From: a virus
Taxonomy: Duplodnaviria; Heunggongvirae; Uroviricota; Caudoviricetes
DNA: 44,661 nucleotides
Reading direction: 5' to 3' (one strand)
Virus record (IMG/VR): IMGVR_UViG_2654587540_000005
A program made the position numbers and the translations under genes. Positions 1 to 23,016 of the stretch are shown here, piece after piece (positions within the stretch are counted from its first letter, which is position 1; the number at the start of each line of letters is the position of its first letter). The notes beneath the pieces were generated by a model that saw only the letters and a list, made by a program, of their open reading frames with translations, was not told the origin of the DNA and searched no databases.

Positions 1-414
1 TTATCCTATGTATTCCTTCGCATTTATTCCATGCTTTAATAAGTGTATAAGGTTTTAGCTAAGTTGATTTTTTTATTGACTTGGCTTTTTTGTGTCTGGT
101 TTGATGGTCTAGTTATGAGTGTAGGTATTTTTCGATTAAAGCGTATATCTTGATTTTTATATTAAGAATCATTCCTGATTTCTACTGAAGCCAAGAGAAA
201 ATTATTAATATATTTCATAGGATGATTTTGAATTAGGATCTAAACAATAAGATATGGTTCACGTAAATTTATTTTGCTGGAGTGATAACTCGATTGGGTG
301 TTTATTGAGGGGGGGCAAAAATATTGGTTTGACATTATTATTACTACCTTTTTTTGTTTCTTTGCTCAGTGTTTACGTTGCTTTTTAGCGTGCAAAAAAT
401 AGAGAACTATTATA

Positions 415-1677
415 CTAATTCATTTTCTTTATTCTCTGGGCGAATTCAAACGGTGTAATGTGTTCTTTTCTGTTGGCATTAAGGTAGTCAGCCCACCATT
501 GTAACATGAGTTTTCTCTCTTCGAGATGTTCCGCTTTGTGGATATATGCTGCCCGAACCGAGTTACGCTCTTGGTGGCTCATTTGACGTTCTACGGCGTC
601 TCTTGACCATAACCCAGATTCGATTAATGCACTACAAGCCATAGTTCGAAAACCGTGACCACAAACTTCAGCTTTCGTGTCGTAACCCATGGTGCGAAGA
701 GCCTTGTTAACAGTGTTTTCGCTGATTGGTTTGTCATCGCGACTAAAACCAATGAACATAAGATCCTTTTCTCCACTTATAGCTTGGAGCCTTTTAAATA
801 ATACTACAGCCTGCTTACTTAGCGGCACAAGATGAGGGGTTTTCATTTTTGAGCCCCTATTTGAATACTTAACCCCCTCCAATTCTCGTCTTTCTGCAGG
901 GATTGTCCATAAGGAGTTTTTGAAATTCACCTCAGACCAACGAGCGAATCTAAGTTCACTTGAACGGATGAAAGTCAGTAGAGTTAATTGAACTGCTATT
1001 TGAGTGATACCTTTCCCTTTATAGGCATCAATCCGTTTGAGAAGCTCAGGAAGTCGTTCGAGGGGAAGGGCAGGGCGGTGATTACTCTTGGCAGTGGTTA
1101 CAGCGCCTGCGAGGTCGTAAGCTGGGTTTTGGTCAATCAAAGCATTGTGAACAGCATACCGCATGATGGCAGTGATTCTTTGTTGTAAACGGGCAGCAAG
1201 TTCAAGATGTCCAGTTTCCTCTGCTTTTTTCAGAGGAACAAGTAAATCACGAGTTTTAAGCTCACTAATGTTCCGCTTACCGATAACAGGAAATACATGA
1301 GTGATCAGGCTGTTTAATACGGTAGTTCTGTGACTGTCTGACCAGGTTCTGTTGCTTGAGTGCCAGTCTCTGGCAACAGTTTCAAAAATGAGTAAGCCTT
1401 TCTCTTCAATCTTTTCTGTTTTTCGCTTTTCGCCAGGGTCAACATTGTTGGCAATGAGTTGCCTTGCTTCTTCTCTTCTACGACGAGCTTCTGCTAAAGA
1501 CACTTCGGGATAAACACCAAGCGCCAACATTTTTTGCTTACCAGAAAAGCGATATTGAAGCCGCCAGTATTTTGAACCCGTAGGGTGAACCAGGAGATGC
1601 ATACCATCCCCATCTGTTAACTTGACGGGCTTTTCAGTAGGTTTCGCATTTCTGACTTTTACCTCAGTTAGTGCCAT
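415..1677 (-). CDS. int: Tyrosine site-specific integrase, P4-like family
   Basis: 420 aa ORF with ATG at 1677 preceded by GGAGG. N-terminus (KPTEKPVKLTDGDGMHLLVHP...YWRLQYRF) is a P4-type arm-binding domain and the C-terminal half has the tyrosine recombinase pattern (...HGFR...RAAYIH...). Confidence 0.85.
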   Translation of the reverse strand: MALTEVKVRNAKPTEKPVKLTDGDGMHLLVHPTGSKYWRLQYRFSGKQKMLALGVYPEVSLAEARRRREEARQLIANNVDPGEKRKTEKIEEKGLLIFETVARDWHSSNRTWSDSHRTTVLNSLITHVFPVIGKRNISELKTRDLLVPLKKAEETGHLELAARLQQRITAIMRYAVHNALIDQNPAYDLAGAVTTAKSNHRPALPLERLPELLKRIDAYKGKGITQIAVQLTLLTFIRSSELRFARWSEVNFKNSLWTIPAERRELEGVKYSNRGSKMKTPHLVPLSKQAVVLFKRLQAISGEKDLMFIGFSRDDKPISENTVNKALRTMGYDTKAEVCGHGFRTMACSALIESGLWSRDAVERQMSHQERNSVRAAYIHKAEHLEERKLMLQWWADYLNANRKEHITPFEFAQRIKKMN

Positions 1678-1853
1678 TGTGACCTCCTGATGATGGTATC
1701 TGCATTATCGAACTTACAATACCAACAGTTATACCAACAAAACAAGCTGGATGTCCGTATATCCCAACAGTCCTTGGTAGACCATGGTTAAAGTGTACTT
1801 CATTGAAATGATTGGGAAAAATAGACTTTGATATACTTCGGTAGACAGGGTTC

Positions 1854-1873
1854 TGGCGTCCCCTGCAGACATC
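1854..1873. repeat. Degenerate direct copy of the argW 3' end (putative distal att site)
   Basis: tggcgtcccctgcagacatc matches tggtgtcccctgcaggaatc at 43579..43598 in 17 of 20 positions, with an exact 11-bp core gtcccctgcag. It lies in the int/alpA intergenic gap. Confidence 0.45.
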
Positions 1874-1941
1874 TACTTGAAGCGGCAGGGGGTTGATTGG
1901 AATGGTATTTTTTAGATGTGAGAAATATTTTACCCGCTATT

Positions 1942-2142
1942 TTACCCATTGGCGCGGCTTAAGAGCTTATTTTTGAATTCACAATGGTCACGATATAACC
2001 ATCTTGCTCGCCCGTGGATAACTTTGGCTTTAGGCAGGTCGCCGGACTTAATCCGGTCGTAGATGAAGGTTTTACCAAAGCCAGTATCAGCCATGATGAA
2101 TTTCAAATCAACCAGGGAATCAGGCTGTAGTTCGTGTTGCAT
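1942..2142 (-). CDS. alpA: AlpA-family HTH protein, putative excisionase/regulator
   Basis: 66 aa ORF with ATG at 2142 and a GGAGA RBS. Small HTH protein (…FIYDRIKSGDLPKAKVIHGRARWLYRD…) typical of AlpA/Xis-like proteins at prophage ends. Confidence 0.7.
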   Translation of the reverse strand: MQHELQPDSLVDLKFIMADTGFGKTFIYDRIKSGDLPKAKVIHGRARWLYRDHCEFKNKLLSRANG

Positions 2143-2266
2143 GAGTGCTATCTCCGAATAGGGAATCGAACCTGCAAATCAGGTAATAAAAAACCGCATT
2201 GATGCGGCGATGGTAGGTCTGGATATCTTGATAAATGAAAATGCCTCATCGAGTGTGAGGCTGTGG

Positions 2267-2611
2267 TTAGTCCTTGCGTAACTCGCTAATTCTTCTGTAA
2301 GTCTCTGGTGCTTTGTTCCCGTACGTCTTCATTTCAGACTTCAACAGAGCAACGAGTGAATCCCATTCGTTGAGGATGCCTTTGAATGCTGGAACGCGCT
2401 TTGCAACCTTGTCGAATGAATCTCTTATTTCTGGAATCTGCTCAACAAGTGCAACGCATCGTCGGAAATCGGCCACATCATGTGGAGCGCCGAAGTGATG
2501 ACCATAGATATTCTTTTTCAGTCCACATGCGATTGAGGCAAGAGTTGCGCTACTGATGCCGACATCGCCAGTCGATTGCCATTTCAAAACCTTCATAGCC
2601 AAATCTGACAT
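2267..2611 (-). CDS. Hypothetical phage protein
   Basis: 114 aa ORF with ATG at 2611 and a GGAGA RBS, co-oriented with and immediately upstream of the DpdA-like gene. No domain recognised. Confidence 0.5.
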   Translation of the reverse strand: MSDLAMKVLKWQSTGDVGISSATLASIACGLKKNIYGHHFGAPHDVADFRRCVALVEQIPEIRDSFDKVAKRVPAFKGILNEWDSLVALLKSEMKTYGNKAPETYRRISELRKD

Positions 2612-2668
2612 TTCTTGTCTCCATAAAACAAAACTCGCCGTAGCGAGTTCAGATAAAAGAAATCCGCA

Positions 2669-3472
2669 TTAAGCGGCGTCGGTGAATTCAAATAAAAAAC
2701 CGGCTTGCGCCGGCTCTCTCATCTTTCTGTCTACCCATGCTGATATCGATGGCTGGTGCACCTTTTCAATAGCAGCGCGAAGTACAGCTGTACGTGCCAG
2801 TTTGTCGGTAATCTCAGGAAATCGCTTCTCAGTTTTTGGTACGTTAACGGCAACGTTAGTAGAATCTGCGCTGGCGAATGGATACATCCCAAGCACCCTG
2901 ACATCTAGCATCCTCAATCCATGGAGCTTAACCGGGGATTTTCTATTGATGTATAGCTCAGTAAACACCTCATCCATGCGCTGCTCCCACCACTTAGATC
3001 GTATATGTCTGTGCGGTCCGCAACATCCTATTGCGACCCACTCATAACGCTCAGAAAGCCTCACAAGTCGATCAATCGATTCATCAGAATGCCATACAGG
3101 TACGTCCTTGGACGCAAGCCAGTGTGGAACTAATGCTAACTGCTCATCGTTTTCTTCCTCCGTTCCTTCAATGACATCAGGTATAAGAAACCACTCAATT
3201 CGGCTGAACCATTTCCCGACAAAGTCATAAAACCTCTCACTTCGCTTCCCCCAGTCCACCGTTTTCTTTTTCTTTTTGGCTTTATCCCATGCTGAAAACG
3301 CGCCGTTATCAAGTCTGATATCACATGGGATCATTGCCACTTTCTTCATCTGCTCCGGTCTTGCAAATGAAATGAACGCTCCACCATCACGGTACAGAGC
3401 CTTTATGAGCATATCTGTAGGTGCATCTTTATCACCCCAGATAGGACTTCCGTGAAAGTGGACTGTCATCAT
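2669..3472 (-). CDS. TGT-superfamily protein, putative DpdA-like DNA 7-deazaguanine transglycosylase
   Basis: 267 aa ORF starting ATGATG at 3472. Motifs RLDNGAF (cf. TGT DSGGFQ), AIGCCG, LHGLRML and FASADST are consistent with a tRNA-guanine transglycosylase-like barrel. Its start overlaps the stop of the upstream membrane-protein gene. Confidence 0.5.
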   Translation of the reverse strand: MMTVHFHGSPIWGDKDAPTDMLIKALYRDGGAFISFARPEQMKKVAMIPCDIRLDNGAFSAWDKAKKKKKTVDWGKRSERFYDFVGKWFSRIEWFLIPDVIEGTEEENDEQLALVPHWLASKDVPVWHSDESIDRLVRLSERYEWVAIGCCGPHRHIRSKWWEQRMDEVFTELYINRKSPVKLHGLRMLDVRVLGMYPFASADSTNVAVNVPKTEKRFPEITDKLARTAVLRAAIEKVHQPSISAWVDRKMREPAQAGFLFEFTDAA

Positions 3473-3930
3473 CTCTTCCTTAAAATTAATGACCAGATAA
3501 AACCTCCGCCAACCTTAGCAATGAACTGGCCGGCAATGATTCCTGGCATAAGAGAGCCGAATGCGATAAGCGGGAACGATATAGAATCAATAACTGAAGC
3601 GGTTATGTTTGAGGCATTTGCCTTAACTGACCAAGGCTTGCGAATCAACAGTTGATAGACGCTTCCGTCTCCCAGTGATGCGAGAACGAAGGAGGCTGAG
3701 GAGGCAATGGCGATCATGCCGCCTGCAGGATTAATGATGTAACTTAAAACTCCTGACAGTACAGCAAGCCCAGTAACTTTAATAAACCCGATTCGCTCAT
3801 GGAGTACGTCACGAAGAATGAAATCAAGGCCAATCAGAGCGAAAGAATTGACGATAGACCACCATGGTCCGAACAGAAACACAAGGTAGTTAGCTGCGCA
3901 GATTGCTAATACATATACAAGTGCAGCCAT
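3469..3930 (-). CDS. Polytopic membrane protein, putative YhhQ/VUT-family queuosine-precursor transporter (short form)
   Basis: Hydrophobic ORF; preferred start is ATG at 3930 with a GAGGG RBS, whereas the ORF-track start at 3987 is a GTG. Several predicted TM helices and YhhQ-like segments by recollection. Translationally coupled to the DpdA-like gene. Confidence 0.4.
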   Translation of the reverse strand: MAALVYVLAICAANYLVFLFGPWWSIVNSFALIGLDFILRDVLHERIGFIKVTGLAVLSGVLSYIINPAGGMIAIASSASFVLASLGDGSVYQLLIRKPWSVKANASNITASVIDSISFPLIAFGSLMPGIIAGQFIAKVGGGFIWSLILRKR

Positions 3931-4083
3931 AGTTGACCCTCTGACATGTGAATGAGCGAAGAGATAGCCGCCCATGCAATAAGGCACGCTATGGCGACCA
4001 GAACTGGGTTGTAATGCATGGTGACTCCGGATAAAGAAAAACCCGCTGGGTGCGGGTTTGTTATGCGTCGAATGGGTTAGGCG

Positions 4084-4323
4084 TCATCCAAGGTATGGCT
4101 TCTTCCAGTCCTCGCTGGTAGCCAACCTCTCCATGGCAAGCAGAATCGGCAGATTAGATTCGTCTGTCTTCTTCATGATTTCCCAATGAAGCCGTTTTAA
4201 CTCGTGGACCAGCTGGTCTCTGTTTGTTTCCGCATCATTGCTGGCAAGCATCAAGCAGCACTCACCAACAATTCGACACGCTTCCCGGTACAGGTCTTCT
4301 GAAAGCTTCTCATATTCTGACAT
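4084..4323 (-). CDS. Hypothetical early-left protein
   Basis: ATG at 4323 with a GGAGGGG RBS; the ORF-track start at 4341 has a weaker context. 79 aa. Confidence 0.5.
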   Translation of the reverse strand: MSEYEKLSEDLYREACRIVGECCLMLASNDAETNRDQLVHELKRLHWEIMKKTDESNLPILLAMERLATSEDWKKPYLG

Positions 4324-4360
4324 AAGCAACCCCTCCACCATGAAGGGATTTTATATCACA

Positions 4361-4687
4361 TCAGTTTGCATCCTGCTGCTCAGCCCTCCGCGCTTCAGCG
4401 TCGTGATATCCCTGCATGTAAGCATCAGCCCAGTCTGGGTTAACACCTGCCTGAATAGCGATTTCGTCGATACACTCAGGCTCTGCGGCGGCCTTTTTCG
4501 CGTGCTCACGAATCTGCGCGATTAGCTCCTCGGCATTAACCTCAAAGCACTTCAGAGTTTCACATCCGCCAACCTTGTCACCGGAGATTCGGCACCCGCC
4601 ATCATCGTTACTTACGCAGAGGGAAAGGCCACCGGCCTGATTGTGAGATATTTCGATATAAACATTGCCTGTCTTCAATTTAGACAT
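4361..4687 (-). CDS. Hypothetical early-left protein
   Basis: 108 aa ORF with ATG at 4687 and an AGGAGG RBS. Its start overlaps the stop of the upstream gene. Confidence 0.5.
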   Translation of the reverse strand: MSKLKTGNVYIEISHNQAGGLSLCVSNDDGGCRISGDKVGGCETLKCFEVNAEELIAQIREHAKKAAAEPECIDEIAIQAGVNPDWADAYMQGYHDAEARRAEQQDAN

Positions 4688-5294
4688 TTTTAGCCTCCTG
4701 CTGCGGCGCTGCTGGTGCGGCGGCGAGCATTTTCGAGTAGCAATGCACTGTATTCAGCCAGAACCCAACCACCGATTGTCCAGCACGCAACATATCTTTT
4801 GTTGGGTCAATCGGAACAAGTTTCCATCCATTCGGAATCACCGGAGAGTTACCAGCCACCATTTTGTTGGCATCATCAGAATGGTCTACCATTTCGAGGT
4901 GTTGCTCGGTATGGTTTCCTCCCTGAAGCATGGCGGCGCGGCAGGCATTCCAGCCTCTCACCTCTGCAATAGCGGCAACAGCATCGACCGCGTACATTTT
5001 AAGAGGGTTGGGCATTGGTTTTTCTTCAGGTACTACTGGCACTGGAGGGGCGGCGTATACTTCAATTGTCCCATTATCAATAGGCCATTCTCCATCCTTG
5101 ATGTAGTCACTTGTGCCATCGACCTGCTGTTCTGCAATGTGGAAAGCACCTATTGGTTTTGCTTCCAGCGATGCCAGAGCAATTCGTGCCAGTTCTTCCG
5201 CTTCTTCTGCTGGCAGTACAACGTTGCTGCCAGGTCCGTATGTTTCGCGCCACTGCTTGATTGTCAGCAGTCGCTCTTTGGTAATAGTGATCAT
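4680..5294 (-). CDS. Hypothetical early-left protein
   Basis: 204 aa ORF with ATG at 5294 and an AAGGAA RBS. No recognised domain. Confidence 0.55.
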   Translation of the reverse strand: MITITKERLLTIKQWRETYGPGSNVVLPAEEAEELARIALASLEAKPIGAFHIAEQQVDGTSDYIKDGEWPIDNGTIEVYAAPPVPVVPEEKPMPNPLKMYAVDAVAAIAEVRGWNACRAAMLQGGNHTEQHLEMVDHSDDANKMVAGNSPVIPNGWKLVPIDPTKDMLRAGQSVVGFWLNTVHCYSKMLAAAPAAPQQEAKNV

Positions 5295-5806
5295 GCCGCG
5301 TTTCCTTCTTTCTTATTAACAATTACACCGTCATATATTTCATTAAGGTGCCCTCTCAACTCCATGCGCCTTAATGCAGATAACATGTAATCGCATTCAA
5401 CCTGCTTATTTCCAGTAAATGGCTTATCGTCAGGATTACCCCAACAGCAATTACCCTTGGGCCACCCATGTACTTTCCGTACTCTTCCGTTAACAACGTG
5501 AAGTAATCCCCAGCCAGGTGGTAAATCCTCAATTGAAATAATTCCCGGCTCACTAATAAAGAATCGCCAGTCGCCCATTCCAAGAGACGGATTTTTACGA
5601 AAACGCTTTTTTCTATCTGCTAACAAGTCAGCACGAGAACACTTCGCTTCTATCAGGCATGATGCTGAATTTCTGAATCCCATAGCATCTGGCTGTTCTC
5701 CGGTACTGGTTACAGCTATAAAGCGGTCATGAAAACAAACCTTGAACCCGTTGCGCTTAAGGAACTTATACGCAATCTGACAGAGTTCACGGTGTGTTAA
5801 CGCCAT
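5291..5806 (-). CDS. PD-(D/E)XK nuclease-fold protein (MmcB-like)
   Basis: ATG at 5806 with an AAGGAGAG RBS; the ORF-track extension to 5878 is unsupported. Motif ...GEQPDAMGF...CLIEAKCS fits the PD-x(n)-ExK signature. Confidence 0.5.
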   Translation of the reverse strand: MALTHRELCQIAYKFLKRNGFKVCFHDRFIAVTSTGEQPDAMGFRNSASCLIEAKCSRADLLADRKKRFRKNPSLGMGDWRFFISEPGIISIEDLPPGWGLLHVVNGRVRKVHGWPKGNCCWGNPDDKPFTGNKQVECDYMLSALRRMELRGHLNEIYDGVIVNKKEGNAA

Positions 5807-5807
5807 A

Positions 5808-5996
5808 TCACTCTCCTTTAGTGCGCAAGTGGTTTTTCCAGCGGTTTTGCGCCGCGCTGGGCTTTTTGCTAAAACCACAATCCATCATCCCGTAATATTT
5901 CATCAACCCCATCCGTCGGTTGCTGAGTCTCACCCACTGCCAGACGCCAGGAGCGTTTCTACGAACTAACAGAATCTTTGCTTTACGGTTTTTCAT
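5808..5996 (-). CDS. Small basic hypothetical protein
   Basis: 62 aa ORF with ATG at 5996 and an AGGAGA RBS; its stop abuts the start of the next gene. Confidence 0.4.
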   Translation of the reverse strand: MKNRKAKILLVRRNAPGVWQWVRLSNRRMGLMKYYGMMDCGFSKKPSAAQNRWKNHLRTKGE

Positions 5997-6168
5997 CGTT
6001 TTGCTCTCCTGCGTTTCTTTGCTTCGCGTCGTGCAGCCGCAATACCGGTATGGCGGCGCTTTGGTGCCGGGATGATGTTGTCAGCCATCAGGACATGCGG
6101 CTTCGCAATTAGCGCAGAAGCCCAAAAACGAGTCGGGTACGGTAACAAGCCGATACATGCCACACGCA

Positions 6169-6882
6169 TTACTCACCTCCTTTGATGCGAATGCCAGCTG
6201 CGCTTGCTGATTCTTCATATGCGCGTTTAGCAGCGTTAAGGATTGCTGCCAGTGGCGTATAGCCGCCATCCATTCGGATTGTGTTGTGGATGCCAGCCAT
6301 TGTGTCGCGCAATTTGCTGTGGCTAGCAGACAGTTCTGCTATGCGCTTCTCTGCGGATTCCAGCGCTGCAACCAATTCGTCTACAGTTCCGGCAGCTTGC
6401 AGTGCGTAATCGGTAATAGCCATCTCATGATCAATTTCAGTACCGTTCTCATTCGTTGAGGTGATAGCAAAATAATCAGAGTCGATTTCGTTATCAGCTA
6501 AGTGGCGTAGCGTATCGGCAACAAACTGACCGTTTTCGATTAACAGCTTCCCTACCGTTAGCGCAATATCCTCGTTCTCCTGATCGCGGCGTTTGATGTA
6601 TTGCAGGTTTCTTTCCCGTTCATCCAGCAGTGCCAGCACAGTAACCGGATTGGATGCGGCGATGAATTCAGCATTGGCCTGCTGTTCCATTTGGAAATCT
6701 TCATCGAAACCGCTTTCAGGATGCGCTCCTTCAATTCTGCAAATGGGAAGATATCCAACAACGTCACGATGAATTAGCGCATCATCACAATCAAATCGGC
6801 TCTCTCCATATTCGAGCGACCACACACCACACGTTGCTTTCTCTGCCTTTTCACGCAGTGCCTGATAGTCAATCTTGCTCAC
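6169..6882 (-). CDS. Ead/Ea22-like protein
   Basis: Preferred start is GTG at 6882 with an AAGGAGG RBS, overlapping the upstream stop as GTGA. Acidic protein with an Ea22-like character (…NAEFIAASNPVTVLALLDE…). Confidence 0.5.
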   Translation of the reverse strand: MSKIDYQALREKAEKATCGVWSLEYGESRFDCDDALIHRDVVGYLPICRIEGAHPESGFDEDFQMEQQANAEFIAASNPVTVLALLDERERNLQYIKRRDQENEDIALTVGKLLIENGQFVADTLRHLADNEIDSDYFAITSTNENGTEIDHEMAITDYALQAAGTVDELVAALESAEKRIAELSASHSKLRDTMAGIHNTIRMDGGYTPLAAILNAAKRAYEESASAAGIRIKGGE

Positions 6883-7292
6883 TGGTTGCCTCCTTTGCGA
6901 AGCTGTTCCGCACAATGCAGCAGGGCGTCCGTCGCTTCTTTCACCGTAACGATGTCGCCATCGTCCAGCCCGGCAACCGTCGCGTCCTTAACGAACACCG
7001 AGCAAAGGTCATTAAACGCCTGCGCCCGTACTTCAGCCAGAAAAGCATCGGTGGCTGGGGTTTCCGTGAAGTTGTCCTCCCAACCGTAGTACTCCTGACG
7101 ACAGAAGTTATTAAATTCCTTCTCCGACTGTTTAAGCGCCGCATTTTCCGCTGCCAGCGCCGCGCACTTGGCCTCCGCTTCAGCAAATTTACGCACCAGA
7201 TATTCTGCGTTTGTTTCGTTAACCTTTAAATCTCGTGGGATGCATTTACCTTTCAGAAAACCATCCATCTCAATTAGTGACATTTGTTTCAT
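6879..7292 (-). CDS. Hypothetical coiled-coil protein (Ea22-like N-terminal region)
   Basis: ATG at 7292 with a GGAG RBS; the ORF-track start at 7310 is a GTG. Alanine-rich coiled-coil segment. Confidence 0.45.
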
Positions 7293-7453
7293 TTCTTCCC
7301 ACTCCGCCACATTGCATTCAGATATTTGTTTTGATTCACTGATGGAAACGAGTTTATCTTAAGCAATTCCTCTCTCGATGGCATTGGCTTTACGCGTTGG
7401 CGAATAATCATTTCTGCCGGAAGAATGCCGGGATTGTATGCAAGTCCTCTCAT
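7289..7453 (-). CDS. Small hypothetical protein
   Basis: Internal ATG at 7453 with a GAGGA RBS about 8 nt upstream. Part of the tightly packed leftward operon. Confidence 0.3.
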
Positions 7454-7463
7454 GGTAAATTCC

Positions 7464-7757
7464 TCAGTCATTACTGATAGCGCCATAGCGTGAGCGGTAA
7501 TTACGCAGGCGCGGGTCAATTTCAGGGAAGTGGGTATATGTGGCTTTGCGGAATGGTCGGATTGATGTCTGGTAAATTCGCTCGCGTTCTTCTTTCTCTG
7601 CAAGCCATATACAGTGGCGAAATTCCTTTTCCTCTTTCGTTTCCTGCGGTAGAGCCATTATTCGATCGTAGTTTTTTCTGAATTTATCCAGCACCTCCGA
7701 TACGGAATTGCCGGAACAGCGGCGTGGGTCATCCGCACCATACAGAGGCGCTGGCAT
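7464..7757 (-). CDS. Hypothetical phage protein
   Basis: 97 aa ORF with ATG at 7757 and an AAGGA RBS. Confidence 0.5.
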
Positions 7758-7780
7758 AATTAAATCCTTATTTTTCTAAA

Positions 7781-8164
7781 TCAGAATGGGATGGAATCGT
7801 CGTATACAGGAGTGTTCTGCTGGTTACTACTTTGCTGCTGCGGGCCATTTCCTGAAGCTGCAAATCCAATTTTTGCATTCAGTAATTCAAGAGTGATTGA
7901 TTGACCATTTTGCCCCTGATAAACATCAACCCTGATGTTTTCTCCGGTAATTTCCACAATGCCACCTTCAACAAGAACACTACGGTAGTAATCCGCTTGC
8001 GCTCCCGGCTTGGCAAATACAACGGCGCTGTAGTTTGTCCATTCTTTCTTTTTTGTCTGGCGATCGTAATACTGAACGCCAGCACGGATGTTGAATCCGA
8101 TATTTTCCCCGGCCTGAAACTCTCTTGCGGGCTTGTTTAGTCTTACAGTAATCGAATGTGCCAT
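7781..8164 (-). CDS. Phage single-stranded DNA-binding protein
   Basis: ATG at 8164 overlaps the erf stop. Glycine/glutamine-rich tail ending DDSIPF is the characteristic SSB C-terminal tail. Confidence 0.65.
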   Translation of the reverse strand: MAHSITVRLNKPAREFQAGENIGFNIRAGVQYYDRQTKKKEWTNYSAVVFAKPGAQADYYRSVLVEGGIVEITGENIRVDVYQGQNGQSITLELLNAKIGFAASGNGPQQQSSNQQNTPVYDDSIPF

Positions 8165-8769
8165 TAAGCAGCCGCTCCTTCTAATTCGTCTCGTCTGATG
8201 TTGTAAACGCCATGCGCTTTGTGCTGCTCCGGTGTGCCTTCGAGCATCTTCCACGCTTTGGCGAACGCCTGTTTAAGCTCTTCTACGGTGTTTTTCTGCA
8301 TTGCTGCGTCAGTGAATGCTTTTAGAACCTGTTCAGGTGTAGGTGATGGCTTTGATTGCTTTGCTGCTGCGTTCTGCTGATGTTTATGCTCGTCGGTATC
8401 TGCATCTTTCGCATCATCAATGCCGAATAAACCATTGAGGCAATACTTGCGTGCATAAGAGCTTGTAGCTCCAGTAACTTGTGCAGAATCCATTCCTTTC
8501 TTGCTTTCTTCCTCTCGTGCAAGAGCGGTTGCCGTATGACTGTTTTCGCCATCGGTAATAGTTGCCGTGGCTTTCACGTAATACCGATCACCAATCAACA
8601 CAACTTCATCGCTGATTGATAAAAACAGGCCATTCAGTAACGGCTTAACGCCTTCAAGAATGTCTTCGCAGCTTCTGTATTTATATTTGCCGAATGAGTT
8701 GTACTGATTCTTTGGCGCGTTCAGATTCTCCTGAATAGCTGCCAGTCTTGCGTAAAATTCTTTGCTCAT
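8164..8769 (-). CDS. erf: Erf-family single-strand annealing recombinase
   Basis: ATG at 8769 (MSKEFYARLAAIQENLNAPKNQYNSFGKYKYRSCEDILE...), the conserved Erf N-terminus. Position upstream of ssb matches P22-type recombination modules. Confidence 0.8.
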   Translation of the reverse strand: MSKEFYARLAAIQENLNAPKNQYNSFGKYKYRSCEDILEGVKPLLNGLFLSISDEVVLIGDRYYVKATATITDGENSHTATALAREEESKKGMDSAQVTGATSSYARKYCLNGLFGIDDAKDADTDEHKHQQNAAAKQSKPSPTPEQVLKAFTDAAMQKNTVEELKQAFAKAWKMLEGTPEQHKAHGVYNIRRDELEGAAA

Positions 8770-9025
8770 ATTATTGTTCTCAGAATGGACACGGCCCAAG
8801 GAAATAACGCTGATTTAATACTTCGACTCGGGACAAATTAAGGCATACCCGCATCCCTTCGCGGTCACCATTATGGCGATACCAGAGAGCTTTCTGCGTG
8901 TACATGCGTCTCTGTAACTTGCTCTCCTTCACTGTGGTTGCAAGTGACATGAATATCTCCTTCGTTACCGATTAAATCTTTCATCTGACGAATGAATTCT
9001 TCGTCTGACCAGTTATCTGTAAAAC

Positions 9026-9178
9026 TCATTTCCTGCGATACCACGGAAGGTTGATAGCTGATTTCATCGCTTTATTTGCTTCAAACCACATTTTTGAATC
9101 ACCAATAAATCTGGCTATTACTGCTTTGTTCTGTGCAGCACGAAGCATCTGGTGATTAATGGCTATTTCATTGCGCAT
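9026..9178 (-). CDS. Small ORF in the kil/cIII-position cluster
   Basis: 50 aa ORF with ATG at 9178 and a GGAGG RBS 5 nt upstream; its stop overlaps the next small ORF as ATGA. Confidence 0.3.
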   Translation of the reverse strand: MRNEIAINHQMLRAAQNKAVIARFIGDSKMWFEANKAMKSAINLPWYRRK

Positions 9179-9296
9179 AACGCCTCCAGTTGTTTCTTTG
9201 CTGCTCTGATTAATTGTTTAACTCGGCGTGATAATTCAGATTCGTGCGGGTAGAAAGCGGACATGACGCCGCTACCCGCTAAAATATATTCATTCA

Positions 9297-9809
9297 TTAT
9301 TTGCTCCTGTAGAATTCGCCGTGATGCTTTCTGGCAAAGTCGCAGTAAGCTTTTTTGGCATCTTCTAATTCATTAAAGTACCCTAGATGTTTTTTCTTCC
9401 CGTTTAATTTCCCATAGGCAGCCCACTTTCTACTTTCCTTCTTCCATGTGACTCCTTTGCAACCTGATTTGTTGAGGGTATTTATTTTACTATTCATTGA
9501 ATTCTGTGAGTAAGTTGCAAGCCTCAGATTGCAAATTCTGTTATCTGTCTTTATGCCATTTATATGGTCGATAATACCTTCAGGCTCAACACCGAAAGTG
9601 ATAATCCATGCAAGTCTATGTGCAGCATAGTGTCTTCCGTTAATGAAAATCCTTAAGTAGCCGCTTGTTGTTATTGTTCCGGCAGTTCCACCTATCTTCC
9701 TTGCTCCATAAGATTTTAGCCATGTGAACTCACCAGAAATAGGGTTATATTTGACAACATTATTAATCTCACTTAGGGAAATTAATTCAAGAATCTTTAT
9801 AAGTGCCAT
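9297..9809 (-). CDS. HNH endonuclease with AP2-type DNA-binding domain
   Basis: HNH motif HINGIKTDNRICNLRL and AP2-like segment SGCKGVTWKKESRKWAAYGK. AT-rich; ATG at 9809. Confidence 0.8.
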   Translation of the reverse strand: MALIKILELISLSEINNVVKYNPISGEFTWLKSYGARKIGGTAGTITTSGYLRIFINGRHYAAHRLAWIITFGVEPEGIIDHINGIKTDNRICNLRLATYSQNSMNSKINTLNKSGCKGVTWKKESRKWAAYGKLNGKKKHLGYFNELEDAKKAYCDFARKHHGEFYRSK

Positions 9810-9893
9810 TTTATATCCTATCAACTGCGTTCATTAATCAGCGTTTACGCTCATGAATAAACACCTCTCGTGAAGCGTTATTGGTATGCATAT

Positions 9894-9917
9894 AAAAAGG
9901 CCCTCACACTGGAGGGC
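9894..9917 (-). terminator. Rho-independent terminator for leftward transcription (tL-like)
   Basis: Minus-strand hairpin GCCCTCCAGTGTGAGGGC followed by a U-run, sited between the 83-aa ORF and the HNH gene. Confidence 0.5.
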
Positions 9918-10053
9918 AAAGAAGATTTCCAATAATCAGAACAAGTCGGCTCCTGTTTAGTTACGAGCGACATTGCTCCGTGTATTCACTCGTTGGAATG
10001 AATACACAGTGCAGTGTTTATTCTGTTGTTTGTGCCAAAAATAAAGGCCACCG

Positions 10054-10305
10054 TCAGGCAGCCTTGTTGTAAATGTTGCAGGTATCAAGTAAGTAATTAG
10101 ATGGAGCGCCATAAATTATGAATTCATCGTTTGTCGGGTCCATCTCCATCTCTTGGCCTATTGCCATTCTTGCGTCAGTGTCATCAGCGGCGAAGCATAA
10201 AACAGCCCACGCACCCATTGTTTTAAACAGAACTGCAATTGGCTGTGGTTTTACTGAATTTGCGTTAGCGCGAAAATCACAAATCGCACTTTCATGAAAC
10301 TCCAT
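10054..10305 (-). CDS. Hypothetical protein
   Basis: 83 aa ORF with ATG at 10305 and a GAGGTGAG RBS. Confidence 0.5.
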   Translation of the reverse strand: MEFHESAICDFRANANSVKPQPIAVLFKTMGAWAVLCFAADDTDARMAIGQEMEMDPTNDEFIIYGAPSNYLLDTCNIYNKAA

Positions 10306-10367
10306 ATCTCACCTCAAATAAGTGGTTTGCTGCCAAAACAATGAACCATCCGGAAATTCCAGATAGT

Positions 10368-10592
10368 TCATAATTCACTCTTCAATACTTCCAACTTACT
10401 AATCGCCGATAGATATCCGCGCTGATAGGGCATCATCATTCCTTCGAGCTTGCCACTTCTTAACTCCTCCCTGAGCAATTGTATTGCTTGATCAATAACC
10501 TCTGCCTTAGCGTCCTTTATGGCTTGCTTGCGGGGCTTTGCTTTCTGCTTTGGCAGATTTCTCAAGCATGATGGAATGTATGTCTGATTCAT
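10368..10592 (-). CDS. Hypothetical protein downstream of N
   Basis: ATG at 10592 with a GAGGTAAG RBS, directly following the N stop. Confidence 0.5.
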   Translation of the reverse strand: MNQTYIPSCLRNLPKQKAKPRKQAIKDAKAEVIDQAIQLLREELRSGKLEGMMMPYQRGYLSAISKLEVLKSEL

Positions 10593-10595
10593 CAC

Positions 10596-10859
10596 TTACC
10601 TCGCTGTAACCTGCTTACTTGTACGATGACCAGCTGCGAAAAGCGCAACTTCTGGCAGGCAGACAGTACCACCTTCAACTTCCTTCTGAAGCGTTCCGGC
10701 AAGCGAAATGGCTTTTGTTACGCGTGTACTGCATGTGCTATTTGCTACCCGGCGCGAAAGAGAAGCGTCCTGCATTGCCTGCTCACGTTGAGCCTGTCTG
10801 CGTGCTCTGCGGCGATTTCTGGCGTTATCGTCAGCCAGATATGTAATGACTACTGTCAT
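10596..10859 (-). CDS. N: N-type transcription antitermination protein (P22 gp24-like)
   Basis: 87 aa with an arginine-rich motif (NARNRRRARRQAQREQ) near the N-terminus and a C-terminus (VTKAISLAGT.QKEVEGG...AAGHR.SKQ.TAR) matching P22 gp24. Sits immediately downstream of nutL. Confidence 0.7.
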   Translation of the reverse strand: MTVVITYLADDNARNRRRARRQAQREQAMQDASLSRRVANSTCSTRVTKAISLAGTLQKEVEGGTVCLPEVALFAAGHRTSKQVTAR

Positions 10860-10966
10860 GTTGACCTCCGATGATTGACTTTGGCGGTGACGCGCCGGGT
10901 GCTTATCTTCCGGTTGCCGTCGTGCAGCTGCACTTCACGTCACCCCAAAGCCAACTACTCTTTGGT

Positions 10967-11009
10967 TCCCGCATTTCGGCGGGACAATCCCATCAATGTT
11001 AAAGAGCCT
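10967..11009 (-). promoter_or_regulatory. nutL (boxA plus boxB)
   Basis: On the leftward transcript, boxA-like TGTTAAAGAGCC (10998..11009) is followed by a boxB hairpin at 10967..10984 whose sequence is identical to the nutR boxB. Confidence 0.6.
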
Positions 11010-11057
11010 GCCAATCTGTTCCGTTTGGCTTCCAGCGTCCTGCTGATGGCTAAAGAA

Positions 11058-11095
11058 TACTGTAGGTATTTTATTGTGTAAATACCCAAGGTATT
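11058..11095. promoter_or_regulatory. oL operator sites / pL region
   Basis: Two 13-bp ATAC-N5-GTAT palindromes (atactgtaggtat, atacccaaggtat) and a possible degenerate third at 11127..11139, matching the oR sites. Confidence 0.55.
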
Positions 11096-11226
11096 TATTT
11101 TTGGTGAAATAATGATAAGCAAATGAATACAAAGGATATTTATTTTTTCGGTGTCTGCTTGTTCAGTGTTTTTTATGCGGGATATGTGAAGTGGATCCCG
11201 ATAGCTATTGCTGCCGGGATTATGGG

Positions 11227-11595
11227 TTAGTCAGCGAAGGTTAAGACGAGAATTACCTTAATGATGTCTGCTACAACAGACACAGCCATAGATAAACCAA
11301 AGACGATCCAAGCCATAGAGATGTCTTCACTACCATCGTATAGCGTTCCGTAATCACTGGTGTAAGGCGTAAATGTCGCGCCTTGATACAACAGGTATAA
11401 GCTTGAACCATAGAGGATAAATGCAGATATCCCTTGTATTGCTATGATCACCAGAATCATGAAACGAGCTGATCTATGCGCCCAAGCCTGGCTTATTTTT
11501 TCTGATAGAGATTTCGCAATAAAAGCATGCGCTAAGCCGTAAATTGTCGAGATTGCCAACATCCCAAAAAAGCTTGATATAGCGGTTCCAACCAT
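11227..11595 (-). CDS. Small polytopic membrane protein at the rexAB position
   Basis: ATG at 11595 with an AAGGGG RBS, 18 nt downstream of the cI stop and co-oriented. Three to four predicted TM segments; no similarity to lambda RexB noticed. Confidence 0.6.
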   Translation of the reverse strand: MVGTAISSFFGMLAISTIYGLAHAFIAKSLSEKISQAWAHRSARFMILVIIAIQGISAFILYGSSLYLLYQGATFTPYTSDYGTLYDGSEDISMAWIVFGLSMAVSVVADIIKVILVLTFAD

Positions 11596-11612
11596 AATCG
11601 CCCCTTGCGTGA

Positions 11613-12329
11613 TCAAACCAGCCTTAGTTTTGTCTCAATTGCAACGCCTATAATCTTGCAGTTTCCATTGATTGGCACGAGAGGCCATGCAGGATTAAGT
11701 CCCTTGAGGTATTTATTTCCGCCGTCGATTATCAGCTTCTTGAATGTTGCTTCGTTAGAGTCAGAAAGTTTTGCTATGACCAAGCTGCCGTTGATCGCCT
11801 CCCTTCCGGTATCGAAAAGAACGAATGTTCCCTCTGGAATGCTTAACCCAACCGGTGCCGTCATTGAATCACCTTCCACTTTAAGCCAGAACGCATTACC
11901 TTGAATATGCGCGTCAGACTCAAGCCAAACATCTATGTCTTTAATGGTGTATGGTTCGCATGCTTCACACCACGAGCCAGCCTGGATACTGCTTAACACC
12001 GGATACCTCTTTCCTGCTCTGTATTCCCCTGCATACCTTACGTTGGCATCGCTCTTAAGGCTTTCTGCCTGTTCTGCAACCTTGGCAGCAATTGACTGGC
12101 TAAAATCAGCAATTGAGACTTGCAACAAACGTGCAAAACCAGATGCGACCTCAACGTTTAGCGCGTTTCTGCCATTAAGATAATGCCCTACCGCTCCTTG
12201 GGTGATACCCAGTTCATCAGCGATTGAGTATTGGGTTATTCCCAATTCTTTCTTTTTTGACTCATACAAAGCCTTAAGCCGCTTAGCGTCTTCGAGCTGT
12301 TCTGTCGTCAGTGATTTTTTATTTTCCAT
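11613..12329 (-). CDS. cI: CI-type prophage repressor (HTH plus S24 LexA-like peptidase domain)
   Basis: 238 aa; N-terminal HTH with the lambda-cI-like pattern TTEQLEDAKRLKALYE, C-terminal autocleavage domain (EGDSM...FKKLI). Confidence 0.9.
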   Translation of the reverse strand: MENKKSLTTEQLEDAKRLKALYESKKKELGITQYSIADELGITQGAVGHYLNGRNALNVEVASGFARLLQVSIADFSQSIAAKVAEQAESLKSDANVRYAGEYRAGKRYPVLSSIQAGSWCEACEPYTIKDIDVWLESDAHIQGNAFWLKVEGDSMTAPVGLSIPEGTFVLFDTGREAINGSLVIAKLSDSNEATFKKLIIDGGNKYLKGLNPAWPLVPINGNCKIIGVAIETKLRLV

Positions 12330-12365
12330 AGCTTAATTCTAATAGCTAAGGTACTTAAACTAAAA

Positions 12366-12403
12366 ATACCCTGAGTATTGATTGCTTTGAATACCTGTAG
12401 TAT
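12366..12403. promoter_or_regulatory. oR operator sites with divergent pRM/pR
   Basis: Two 13-bp ATAC-N5-GTAT palindromes (ataccctgagtat, atacctgtagtat) between the divergent cI and cro starts. Confidence 0.6.
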
Positions 12404-12435
12404 TCTTTGTTCATGGTTAATAACGGAGAGTGCAT

Positions 12436-12630
12436 ATGATTCGAATGACACTTGCCGATTACGCCAAAATCCATGGACAGGCTAAAGCAGCCAGTGACTT
12501 TGGTGTAATCCAGTGCGCTATCAGCAAGGCCATTCTGGCAGGCCGTAACATCATGGTTACGGTAAAGCCTGATGGCAGTGTGATTGGAGAGGAAGTTCGT
12601 CCTTTCCCAAGCAACAAGAAAAACAAATAG
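12436..12630 (+). CDS. cro: Cro repressor
   Basis: ATG at 12436 (the ORF track begins at a GTG at 12430). Close to lambda Cro (..DYA...GQ.K.A.D.GV.Q.AI.KAI.AGR.I...DGSV..EEV.PFPSNKK). Confidence 0.85.
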
Positions 12631-12636
12631 TAACAC

Positions 12637-12679
12637 CGCTCTTTAACAGTCATGGTCATCATTCCCGCCGAAATGCGGG
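12637..12679 (+). promoter_or_regulatory. nutR (boxA plus boxB)
   Basis: boxA CGCTCTTTAACA (12637..12648) followed by a boxB hairpin (stem CCCGC/GCGGG, 12664..12679). Confidence 0.65.
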
Positions 12680-12738
12680 AATACAACGCGCATAATTTGA
12701 TGCGCATAACTTCTTATTTGTTAAGGAAATACTTACAT

Positions 12739-13017
12739 ATGCAACTTACAAGTACTCGCAAGAAAGCGAATGCAATTACAAGCAACATCCTGAATCGAAT
12801 TGCTGTACGTGGTCAGCGAAAGGTTGCCGACGCGTTAGGGATTAATGAATCGCAAATTTCGCGATGGAAAGATAGCTTCATCCCCAAAATGGGAATGCTT
12901 CTGGCTGTTCTTGAATGGGGTGTTGAAGACGAGGAGTTGGCGGAACTGGCTAAGAAAGTAGCCAGAATGCTGACAAAAGAAAAAGCCCCGAAGAACGGCG
13001 AATTCTTCGAGGCCTGA
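12739..13017 (+). CDS. cII: CII transcriptional activator
   Basis: ATG at 12739 with an AAGGA RBS. Matches lambda CII (…SQISRWK…[14 protein letters not shown]…). Confidence 0.85.
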
Positions 13018-13051
13018 TGTAGAAAGACTGGATCAATCCACAGGAGTCATT

Positions 13052-13198
13052 ATGACAAAACAACTCAGTCCTTACCAGGACAAAATTCACAAACACATAC
13101 TACGTGATCGCTTCCTGTCCAGCTTCAAGCAACCTGGTCGATTCCGGGCTGAGTTGGAAAAAGTGAAGCTGATGCAGAAGGAGAAAGGTCATGAGTAA
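13052..13198 (+). CDS. Small ORF between cII and the replication gene
   Basis: 48-codon ATG ORF ([15 protein letters not shown]...) ending just inside the O-like gene start. Below the ORF-track cutoff; function unknown. Confidence 0.3.
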
Positions 13199-14051
13199 TA
13201 TTGCAACCGTAACACATTTAAGGCCTTCACAACGGCCTGTGGAGCGTCGTGTGGCAGAAGTTGAAGATGGTTATACCCGTCTTGCAAATGCCCTGTATGA
13301 AGAGCTTATCGGCGCAGATTTAACGAAAAATCAGAGCAAGGTTGCCCACGCCATATGCCGTAAAACATACGGCTACGGTAAAAAGATGGATCGCATCTCT
13401 GATAGTCAGTTAGCTCAAATTACCAGGCTGCCAAGACAGAAGGTAAACAAGGCCAAGAATGAGCTTATCGCGATGAAGGTTATCCTTCGCGAAGGCCAGC
13501 AAATCGGGCCTAACAAGAACATCGAGGAATGGCAAATAGAAGGGTGTCACTACTCTGGTGATAATGTCACTGCATTGGTGACAAAAAGTGTCACCAAAAC
13601 GGTGACAGCGCTGTCACCAAAACAGGGACACACAAAAGAAACTATTACAAAAGAAAAAAGAAATAATAAAAACACTATGTCCGAAAGTGTTCGGACGGAG
13701 TGTGAAAAATCACCTGACCATCACGAAGAAACCGACAAGGCATTCGAGGAAATATTCTGGTGTGCGGGCATGCGGAAAGCCGGGAAGAAAAACGCAGCTT
13801 CAGCATTCAGAACACAGTTCAGGGAATGGCGTAAAACTACCAGGGGTACGGCAAGCGAGTTTGCCACGATGCTGGCAGAAGACATCGCATGCAGGAATGG
13901 TAAGCAGTTCGGATTCGACAGGTTGTTACCATCGAGCTACCTGAACGGTCAGCGCTGGAACGACGAGAAGCCAGAAACCATTCAACCACAATCCAAACCA
14001 TCATCCGCAATCACCGTATCGAAAACTGGCTACGTGTTTTTCGACAGGTGA
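13191..14051 (+). CDS. O: Replication initiator, lambda O-like N-terminal domain
   Basis: N-terminus matches the lambda O DNA-binding domain ([42 protein letters not shown]...) and contains iterons; the C-terminal half differs from lambda O. Confidence 0.8.
13565..13618. repeat. Origin iterons inside the O-like gene
   Basis: Five copies of GGTGACA/TGTCACC at roughly 12-bp spacing (13565..13618), followed by an AT-rich tract (13626..13680), as at ori-lambda. Confidence 0.6.
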
Positions 14052-14158
14052 ACCATGAAATCAAAAATCAAATCGCTACTGGTCGCTGGTTATAACCACG
14101 GCTGGTTAAGTATTTCGTTTGTCGATTTCTGGTTTAAAAATCTCAATCTGAGGGAATC

Positions 14159-16039
14159 ATGAGGCCAAGTGAACTTAGCGACCTGCTTTGGGCGCAGGTT
14201 GACAGGGTGGCTCCGCACCTGTTGCCAAATGGCAAGAAAGAGGGGCATGAGTGGGTTGCCGGTAACGTCAACGGTGACAAGGGAAACAGCCTTAAGGTCA
14301 ACCTTAGCGGCAAGAAAAAATGGGCTGATTTCGCTGAGGGAGACGGCGGTGACATGCTTGATTTGTGGATGGCATGTCGTGGAATTAACCTGCATCAGGC
14401 TATGCAGGAAGCGAAAGCATTTCTCGGTATCAAGGATGACGATCACCATTTCGATGCCAGACGTGAGAAGAAATTCTCCAGACCTGATCGCAAGAAAATC
14501 GCCCGCTACGTTACCAGAACAGAATCCCATCTTGAGTACCTGCAATCGCGTGGCATATCGCCAGAAGTCGTAAAGCGCTACGAGGTTGTCAGCGGCAAGG
14601 TGTGGAATGGAGAACGAGAACTGGATGCTCTGGTGCTTCCGTACAAACGCGATGGTGAGTTGTTGCAGGTCAAGCGAATCAGCACTGAGCGCCCGGACGG
14701 GAAGAAAGTCATTATGGCAGAAGGTGATTGCGAACCTTGTCTGTTCGGATGGCAGGCTCTGGACGCTGGCGTGAGGGCGGTTGTACTTTGCGAAGGCGAA
14801 ATTGATTGTATGAGCTATGCGCAATATGGCATCTCGGCGTTATCCGTGCCGTTTGGTGGCGGGAAAGGAGCTAAACAGCAGTGGATTGAGTTTGAGTATC
14901 ACAACCTCGACAGGTTTGAGGAAATATTCATCTCGATGGACGTTGATGATGTTGGTCGTGAAGCCGCAAGGGAAATCGCAAGCCGACTCGGTGAACATCG
15001 TTGCCGTCTTGTTACTCTGCCGTACAAAGACATCAACGAATGCCTGATGAACGGTGTTACCGAGGATGAAATCTGGCAGTACATCGGCACGGCATCCTAC
15101 TTCGATCCTGAAGAACTCTACAGCGCGCGAGAGTTTTACCAGGACACTATCAACGCTTTCTACGGCAAGCAGCAGTATCTGTTTAATCCACCGTGGGAAT
15201 CTCTGGCAGATAAATTCCAGTTCCGTGAGGCCGAGTTGACGCTGGTCAATGGTGTGAACGGTCACGGAAAAACGGAGGTTGTCGGGCATATGGCACTTGA
15301 GGCAATGCGTCAGGGTGTGAAGACGTGCATCGCGTCACTTGAGCTGAAGCCTGGTATTCTCCTTAAGCGCCTTACCCGTCAGGCGACGTGCTGCAAGATG
15401 CCGCCAGTGCTGGAAATTGACTCTGCATTTAAATTTTATGACGAAAGACTTTGGGTGTTTGGCCTGACCGGAACGGCGAAAGCCGACAGGCTGATCGAAA
15501 TATTCGACTACGCTCGCCGCCGATACGGCATCCAGTTATTCATTATCGACAGCCTGATGAAATGTGGCATAGGCGACGATGACTATAACGGGCAGAAGGC
15601 GTTTGTTGACTCGATTTGCGACTTCAAAAACAAAACAAACTCCCACGTCATTCTCGTTACTCACTCGCGAAAAGGAGACAGCGAAGAAAAACCAACCGGG
15701 AAAATGGACGTAAAAGGCTCTGGAGCGATAACAGACCTGACAGACAACCTTTTCATCATCTGGCGTAACAAGGCTCGCGAGAGAGCGTTACAGAGAGTTC
15801 AGAGTGGTGAAAAGATGTCAGAGAAGGACGAACAGCTACTGGCATCTCCGGCATCTGTTTTGATGCTTGAAAAACAACGTAACGGTGAAGGTTGGGAAGG
15901 TGGTGTCCCGTTGTTCCTTGACGAGCAATCGCACCAGTTCCTGCAACTTGAATCAGGATCGCCATATAGCTACATCGCCAATATGCCGAAATCGGAATAT
16001 GACGAGGCGTGGCGACAGGAAAACGTGACAGAGTATTAA
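14159..16039 (+). CDS. Bifunctional Toprim primase / RecA-fold helicase
   Basis: 626 aa with ATG at 14159 and a GAGGGA RBS. Toprim signatures (VVLCEGEIDCMSYAQYG, ISMDVDDVGREAA), Walker A GVNGHGKT and Walker B LFIIDSL. Confidence 0.75.
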   Translation: MRPSELSDLLWAQVDRVAPHLLPNGKKEGHEWVAGNVNGDKGNSLKVNLSGKKKWADFAEGDGGDMLDLWMACRGINLHQAMQEAKAFLGIKDDDHHFDARREKKFSRPDRKKIARYVTRTESHLEYLQSRGISPEVVKRYEVVSGKVWNGERELDALVLPYKRDGELLQVKRISTERPDGKKVIMAEGDCEPCLFGWQALDAGVRAVVLCEGEIDCMSYAQYGISALSVPFGGGKGAKQQWIEFEYHNLDRFEEIFISMDVDDVGREAAREIASRLGEHRCRLVTLPYKDINECLMNGVTEDEIWQYIGTASYFDPEELYSAREFYQDTINAFYGKQQYLFNPPWESLADKFQFREAELTLVNGVNGHGKTEVVGHMALEAMRQGVKTCIASLELKPGILLKRLTRQATCCKMPPVLEIDSAFKFYDERLWVFGLTGTAKADRLIEIFDYARRRYGIQLFIIDSLMKCGIGDDDYNGQKAFVDSICDFKNKTNSHVILVTHSRKGDSEEKPTGKMDVKGSGAITDLTDNLFIIWRNKARERALQRVQSGEKMSEKDEQLLASPASVLMLEKQRNGEGWEGGVPLFLDEQSHQFLQLESGSPYSYIANMPKSEYDEAWRQENVTEY

Positions 16040-16068
16040 ATGACCATCTACATCACTGAGCTTGTAAC

Positions 16069-16100
16069 AGGCCTGCTGGTAATCGCAGGCCTTTTTATTT
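16069..16100 (+). terminator. Rho-independent terminator after the replication genes
   Basis: Stem AGGCCTGC/GCAGGCCT followed by a T-run. Confidence 0.5.
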
Positions 16101-16116
16101 GGGGGAGAGGGAAGTC

Positions 16117-23013: not shown

Positions 23014-23016
23014 GAG

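Follow-up and report, generated by a model that had tools for sequence, protein, structure and literature searches.

A displaced argW 3' end as the probable boundary between a P22-like prophage and a genomic island arrayed in tandem at argW

We analysed a stretch of 44,661 nucleotides of viral DNA (IMG/VR record IMGVR_UViG_2654587540_000005), referred to as the window. We found that the 15 nucleotides at 1854..1868 are very probably the far-end att site of a P22-like prophage, and that they adjoin a separate genomic island. We are highly confident in the scheme as a whole, which comprises the displaced argW end and a P22-like phage inserted in an argW gene that already held the island. The evidence lies in the structure of the junctions, in the identities of the individual parts, and in the fact that the two elements occur separately and the empty site exists. 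The features of the window are collected in Table 1.

Table 1. Positions of the features discussed, in window coordinates.
Feature	Position	Strand	Remarks
rloB-int spacer, island interior	1..414	.	AT-rich, 29.7% GC
Island integrase int2	415..1677	-	420 aa, intact ORF; P4-like tyrosine recombinase
Island integrase-proximal att arm (int2 upstream region)	1678..1853	-	176 bp
Displaced argW 3' end (tRNA positions 62-76)	1854..1868	-	Hybrid att core, island arm plus phage torI-side arm
P22-like (Lederbergvirus-type) prophage	1869..43578	.	41,725 bp core to core
Phage torI-side att arm, phage part of minimal attR	1869..1965	-	Same in K-12 attR and in HK620 and Sf6 attP
torI, recombination directionality factor (excisionase)	1942..2142	-	66 aa; 73 bp from core
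T-loop box, 16-mer GGAATCGAACCTGCAA, same as argW T-arm	2162..2177	-	Same as argW 43593..43608; candidate regulatory site
Terminator-like hairpin	2193..2208	-	Just upstream of T-loop box
intS-type phage integrase	42236..43417	-	393 aa from ATG at 43417; directly downstream of argW, same orientation
Phage integrase-side att arm	43418..43577	-	Same as HK620 and Sf6 attP int arm
argW, tRNA-Arg(CCT)	43579..43653	-	Regenerated with phage-borne 3' end (A73)
yfdC, chromosomal flank	43729..44661	-	ORF; yfdC annotated beside tRNA-Arg in relatives

The repeat was re-found by alignment as the preliminary description had reported it. The segment 1854..1873 (TGGCGTCCCCTGCAGACATC) is identical to the argW 3' end at 43579..43598 (TGGTGTCCCCTGCAGGAATC) in 17 of 20 positions and has the same orientation, with an exact 11-mer inside it (1858..1868 = 43583..43593). 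It was also correctly placed between the ORFs 415..1677 and 1942..2142, which are 264 bp apart. However, the meaningful repeat is the 15 nt at 1854..1868. This 15-mer is TGGTGTCCCCTGCAG, and the two copies differ by a single mismatch at 1857 (14 of 15 identical in the tRNA part). The last five bases of the 20-mer, ACATC, are phage arm DNA and are identical in K-12, HK620, and Sf6. Their partial match to the tRNA (GAT in the tRNA sense) fits a degenerate core-type binding site, retained in several relatives.

Searching 5,426 complete Escherichia coli genomes, we found that homology to K-12 MG1655 starts precisely at 1854. The K-12 sequence has TGGTGTCCCCTGCAG and then ACATCTACTTGAAGC, and the window continues identically. 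The K-12 equivalent of the 15 nt is annotated as the pseudogene pawZ (b4643), just outside the "cryptic prophage CPS-53" and beside torI. The element KplE1/CPS-53 is bordered by a duplicated 16-nt core, CTGCAGGGGACACCAT, and its recombination module is common to HK620, Sf6, and CUS-3 (Panis et al., PMC2951348). In GenBank, these 16 nt are labelled as the attP core in both HK620 and Sf6. Because the pawZ annotation, the published core, and the HK620 and Sf6 attP core coincide, we took the repeat to be 15 to 16 nt long. The right copy at the functional argW (43578..43593, minus strand) matches the published core in 16 of 16 positions, and the left copy (1853..1868) in 14 of 16.

The limits of the prophage follow from two identifications: its TorI is the K-12 TorI, and the right-hand integrase resembles HK620 Int. 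An extent from about 1.86 kb to argW had been proposed earlier, and the presence of TorI, Int, and att arms at both ends upholds it. The right-hand integrase, previously described as IntS-like, is indeed so, at 98% identity to HK620 Int. Both integrases of the window carry the domains Arm-DNA-bind_3 (PF13356), Phage_int_M (PF22022), and Phage_integrase (PF00589), which is a P4-like three-domain layout, and they are 32% identical to each other. In K-12, the int-side arm holds the intS promoter, the IntS arm-type sites, and TorI GTTCG sites (PMC2951348). Primers published for in vitro excision (PMC3509656) match the window exactly, both for attR-IHF2 (1946..1965) and for attL (43394..43417 and 43593..43613). 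ARAGORN identified argW as the sole tRNA gene in the window.

PHROGs assigned prophage genes to terminase, portal, coat, DNA-transfer proteins, a CI-like repressor, and primase/helicase, and Pfam recognised the P22 head-binding domain in the tailspike. The nearest phages are Louie, IME10, Dewey, HZ41, and CUS-3, and a single phage record covers at most 58% of the late region. This exact prophage is absent from the 5,426 complete E. coli genomes. With positions 1600..9600 as the query, which include the junction and the initial 8 kb of prophage, the best match covered 49%.

The small ORF at the left end of the prophage had been put forward as alpA, a candidate excisionase. An excisionase does lie at this far end, but it is TorI, and the AlpA label does not hold. 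The 66-aa product has the same sequence as K-12 TorI (100% identity) and falls in PHROG 66, excisionase; RefSeq annotates TorI at this ORF in relatives. It had no Pfam family at E values up to 0.001, and hence no AlpA match. Distant homologues of TorI exist in Pseudomonas phages (43% identical), and some of these are annotated as AlpA family. TorI is the excisionase of KplE1 and has been characterised by experiment. Excision in KplE1-type modules depends on IntS, TorI, and IHF. In the window, IntS and TorI are presumably still able to excise the phage, and excision could be impaired if the differing core base (1857 versus 43582) falls in the strand-exchange region. A sigma-70 promoter scan around torI found none, a literature search on Rho control of torI found nothing relevant, and a search of 1700..2400 for a cryptic tRNA or other RNA family gave only noise-level Rfam matches.

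The DNA to the left of the repeat belongs to the island. Positions 1..1853 are present in 44 of the 5,426 complete genomes, always in the chromosome and at 99.9 to 100% identity. In 19 of the 44, the island stands straight against an intact tRNA-Arg gene that is followed by yfdC, with no phage. In 14 genomes the island is separated from argW by a torI-type phage, and in the remaining 11 by a different island with yeeU, DUF987, and radC-like genes. In the island-only genomes, 1..1853 is followed immediately by TGGCGTCCCCTGCAG-GAATCGAACC..., the intact tRNA-Arg gene, and yfdC. The island arm is identical up to base 1853 where it abuts argW in ETEC4088 and AR_0128, and homology to K-12 and to the free phages stops exactly at the boundary between this arm and 1854.

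The body of the island and its far-end repeat were read in relatives, as the window ends at the rloB-int spacer. In FXCREC035, the last base of the RloB coding sequence directly precedes the first base of the window, and the integrase stop codon falls at 415. The earlier reading of 1..414 as the interior of a second element is therefore sound; this stretch is the rloB-int spacer in relatives. That element was also said to reach leftward beyond the window, and this too is borne out by the 19 island-only genomes and by FXCREC035, in which the island extends for about 43.8 kb to the left of the integrase, up to a third argW fragment beside cscB. The third fragment is the 23-nt TGGTGTCCCCTGCAGGAATCGAA (L003 21582..21604). 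The cargo in FXCREC035 includes AAA-ATPase/RloB, YegP, a recombinase, ParB, a relaxase, two further integrases, an H-NS-like protein, a YhhA-type RiPP cluster, and an HxsABCD system with a TIGR04141 protein. From this gene content, the FXCREC035 island looks like a mobilisable element rich in defence genes. Our literature search, which was not exhaustive, did not find a description of this particular island.

The third type of element seen beside the island, in VE-T2 (L012 6121..6139) and 10 similar genomes, carries a yeeU antitoxin gene, DUF987 and radC-like genes, and antirestriction remnants. It shares a 19-nt identity block, and therefore argW can hold arrays of differing composition.

We recovered six junction types, all read on the plus strand of the window. 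In the phage attP of HK620 and Sf6, the int arm ends in ...GAACTGATAAA and is followed by a core that begins TGGTG and by the torI arm, ACATCTACTTG.... The right end of the window has the same int arm (...GAACTGATAAA) and a TGGTG core, and continues into argW with GAATCGAACC.... At window position 1854, the island arm (...GACAGGGTTC) meets a TGGCG core and then the torI arm. Phage-only lysogens (EJN001 and CUVET19-1937) have the csc flank (...GAAGGGTATC), a TGGTG core, and the torI arm. The island-only genomes ETEC4088 and AR_0128 have the island arm, a TGGCG core, and argW. Finally, the far end of the island in FXCREC035 has the csc flank, a TGGTG core extended by GAATCGAA, and island DNA.

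The predicted empty site, in which the csc flank is joined to the core and argW, exists at 100% identity. Its junction is spanned by a match in 1,415 genomes (match of at least 80% of the query). The comparison with an uninterrupted site that the preliminary description had called for thus found that site, and its outcome favours the reading given there. The island int-side flank (1836..1853) bears a weak similarity to the csc-side flank (L010 3500..3517), with 11 of 18 positions identical, and this suffices to carry BLAST matches on to 1837. The csc-side chromosomal flank may be a relic of an older element, or the likeness may be due to chance.

The mismatch at 1857 helped to place the crossover. 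The functional argW of the island-only genomes reads TGGCG, with discriminator G73 rather than A73 (L005 and L007, position 4857). By this comparison, the C at 1857 is the island's own variant of the tRNA end. When the two elements lie in tandem, the C is joined to the island arm and the T (43582) to the phage int arm. Because of this linkage, the crossover is placed to the right of 1857, and we infer that the phage recombined within GTCCCCTGCAG, the exact 11-mer. Among IMG/VR proviruses, variant left junctions read ...AACCAGTTCCCTGCAG or ...TTTAAAGTGTCCCCTGCAG, each followed by the phage arm, and they would narrow the crossover towards the CTGCAGGG end of the core. Four IMG/VR loci (L109, L016, L072, and L083) have shortened or altered torI-side cores, for example CCCTGCAG only, or a 2-nt deletion; their appearance suggests secondary integration sites or decay, and they too point to a crossover in the CTGCAGGG portion.

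The preliminary description also had the second element inserted in tandem at the displaced att copy. The tandem arrangement stands, but the point of entry was probably another: the island more likely came first, and the phage entered the regenerated argW. The torI phages found beside the same island differ in gene content and are 96.5 to 98.5% identical even within the torI module. Because one near-identical island (at least 99.9%) has three kinds of right neighbour, and the phages among them differ, island first and phages later into the regenerated argW is the most likely order. The order has to be inferred, because the junction sequences fit both orders, which give the same products.

We propose the following history. 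A genomic island of about 44 kb with a P4-like integrase would have occupied argW before the phage, and would have regenerated the gene with the island's own 3' end (TGGCG on the plus strand, discriminator G73). A phage with a KplE1/HK620/Sf6-type module (IntS, TorI, and the 16-nt core) would then have recombined inside GTCCCCTGCAG of the rebuilt argW. The functional argW would thereby gain the phage 3' end (TGGTG, A73), adjoining intS. The island's tRNA end would be shifted 41.7 kb outward, giving a hybrid junction of island arm, core, and phage torI arm, and the resulting order would be island, displaced core, torI ... prophage ... intS, argW, yfdC. Reversal of the phage insertion would give a circle junction of int arm, TGGTGTCCCCTGCAG, and ACATCTACTTG, and the phage-cured site would read island arm, TGGCGTCCCCTGCAG, GAATCGAACC, that is, argW with G73. 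The circle junction of the island would read int2 arm, the 23-nt block, and AGTGTAAATAATT.

The decisive support for the att copy is comparative rather than statistical. Chance occurrence of the 11-mer had been put at once in 50 windows; the figure is right for one fixed 11-mer, but it is weak as an argument by itself. Allowing up to two mismatches, TGGTGTCCCCTGCAG is expected 0.08 times per window, and two matches arose in 0 of 100 shuffles. A 271-bp argW query matched five other 11-mers in the window by chance. This last count speaks for an alternative in which the 11-mer of the repeat is itself a coincidence, the integrase at 415..1677 belongs with the small ORF to one P4-like int-alpA module within a single element, and the end of the prophage is at another place such as 2162..2177, where the exact 16-mer is a longer match to argW than the 11-mer. 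We also counted for it that AlpA-like genes often accompany P4-like integrases. However, int, core, and torI are contiguous in the attP of the free phages HK620 and Sf6, and island-only genomes have int2 against argW without torI; together, these attP records and island-only genomes refute this reading. In addition, the homology to K-12 and the phages begins exactly at the first base of the repeat, and the 16-mer is internal to the phage module, at a fixed offset in 69 IMG/VR loci. We regard the alternative as having next to no probability.

It is also quite unlikely that the phage came first and that the island later entered the displaced 15-nt copy (a pawZ-type attR) instead of argW. The junctions do fit this reverse order, as either scenario leaves the C at 1857 on the island arm and the T on the chromosomal flank. 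However, the identity block between the island and argW is 23 nt long and extends into the T-loop (TGGTGTCCCCTGCAGGAATCGAA), and the displaced copy is without that part. The reverse order must also be set against the island standing alone in 19 genomes and elsewhere beside at least four phage interiors or a different island. Because the island occurs alone and beside varied neighbours, later arrivals entering an intact tRNA gene is the simplest account. Another unlikely possibility is that the left integrase is an orphan remnant, with the island body deleted here and the tandem merely historical. The window ends 414 bp past the integrase, and several relatives have IS insertions in or near int2 (H41-H46), both of which would suit a remnant. 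Yet the 420-aa int2 ORF is intact, the AAA-ATPase and RloB genes directly follow it in all 6 of the inspected relatives, and the window is 99.9 to 100% identical to the relatives up to its first base.

The argW gene has G73 when the island is alone and A73 is restored by phage lysogeny, and therefore the integrated elements would toggle one tRNA base: lysogeny would switch the argW discriminator from the island's G73 back to A73. As a speculation, the phage may also lock the island in, because the identity block of the island reaches the T-loop and the phage core lies 3' of it. Excision of the island would then depend on prior excision of the phage. If this is true, the phage cut the integrase-side arm of the island off from the island's own crossover site.

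A second copy of argW sequence, absent from the preliminary description, is the T-loop box, which is a longer exact match than the 11-mer and lies 18 nt upstream of the torI ATG. Its 16-mer abuts the core in argW, and therefore the phage carries tRNA positions ~47-77 in two pieces with the torI cassette between them. The box is present in K-12, HK620, and Sf6. Loci with the box include L001 (1809..1824), L008 (1677..1692), L133, L136, L137, L141, L208, and L243. Among the 69 IMG/VR loci long enough for both the core and the box, the offset between the two is 308 nt in 68 and 309 nt in 1. The block A-GTTCGATTCCC does not vary across seven divergent phage lineages, although the sequence around it does, and it is always 15 to 18 nt upstream of the torI start. 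The divergent modules are those of the Erwinia phages Midgardsormr38 (two copies) and phiEt88, Salmonella phage Emek, and three IMG/VR contigs, and their TorI proteins are down to 36% identical to that of the window. In a scan for AGGTTCGATTCCCA in viral contigs, 3 of 120 occurrences precede a torI homologue and add new lineages; most of the others are unrelated.

A-GTTCGATTCCC contains GTTCG, the known TorI-binding pentamer, and mutation of GTTCG at attL abolished TorI binding (PMC2951348). The HK620 record has a putative promoter and a cII site drawn over the T-loop box. The box lies outside the 135-bp attR that is sufficient for in vitro excision, and its sequence is the same as one half of the bacterial attachment site, the half next to the crossover. 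Most likely, the box would be bound by a protein that controls torI expression. TorI or IntS could act on it as an operator to regulate the synthesis of the excisionase, or the box could mimic half of the bacterial attachment site. That it is a functional control site at all rather than a relic is a tentative reading, and we lean somewhat towards doubting it. We also considered insertion of the torI cassette into a longer identity block. This origin received no support from intermediates: an unsplit attP, with the core and the T-arm 16-mer contiguous (CTGCAGGAATCGAACCTGCAAATC...), was matched neither in IMG/VR nor in 185,579 species genomes. If the regulatory reading is true, the phage uses a copy of its host target, the T-loop box, as a regulatory switch. 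The box is the sole element here that might prompt new work on the control of excision.

The practical value of the displaced copy is in correct boundary calling, as it marks where the phage ends and the island begins. Another IMG/VR provirus, IMGVR_UViG_2737471827_000006 (L110), starts at the first base of the window and includes the island integrase, with a different phage interior. The shared start base and the shared island integrase suggest that automated prophage calling merges the island integrase into the phage.

The arrangement at argW can be compared with tandem arrays in the Islander collection, in which each element has its own integrase and a displaced tRNA fragment that points the same way as the tRNA gene, with the newest element beside the intact gene (PMC4383910). 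Islander counts 125 arrays of at least two islands among 3,919 islands (PMC4383910), and tandem islands at tRNA genes are therefore routine. Here, each element likewise has its own integrase (int2, 415..1677, and intS, 42236..43417), the elements also occur separately, and an empty site exists. The tRNA fragment of the phage is at 1854..1868, and that of the island was seen in the relative FXCREC035, outside the window. In contrast to the Islander arrays as a class, this is one specific instance in which the island's own fragment lies beyond the window. The chromosomal site is also a familiar one: PMC7545054, citing Moritz and Welch 2006, describes the argW-dsdCXA / csc region as a recognised variable hot spot in E. 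coli. The site analysed here is the same, and in FXCREC035 the island has csc genes beside its far end. The displaced argW end is thus a known kind of att site in an ordinary arrangement, its biology is already well known, and the current understanding of tRNA-gene integration is unaltered by it.

By each sequence criterion examined, the module of the window belongs to the KplE1/HK620/Sf6 family. It shares with KplE1/CPS-53 of K-12 the target gene, the core, TorI, and both arms, and in both the integrase and the excisionase lie at opposite ends. The two differ in three respects. The window holds a full-length 41.7-kb P22-like genome, whereas KplE1 is a 10-kb remnant; on its outer side, attR borders on island DNA here and on dsdC in K-12; and the displaced core carries a C at 1857 here. 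The argW integrators HK620, Sf6, and CUS-3 have the same attP layout, and likewise P22-like virion genes and a P22-like tailspike head-binding domain. However, the gene content of the prophage in the window is a different mosaic from theirs.
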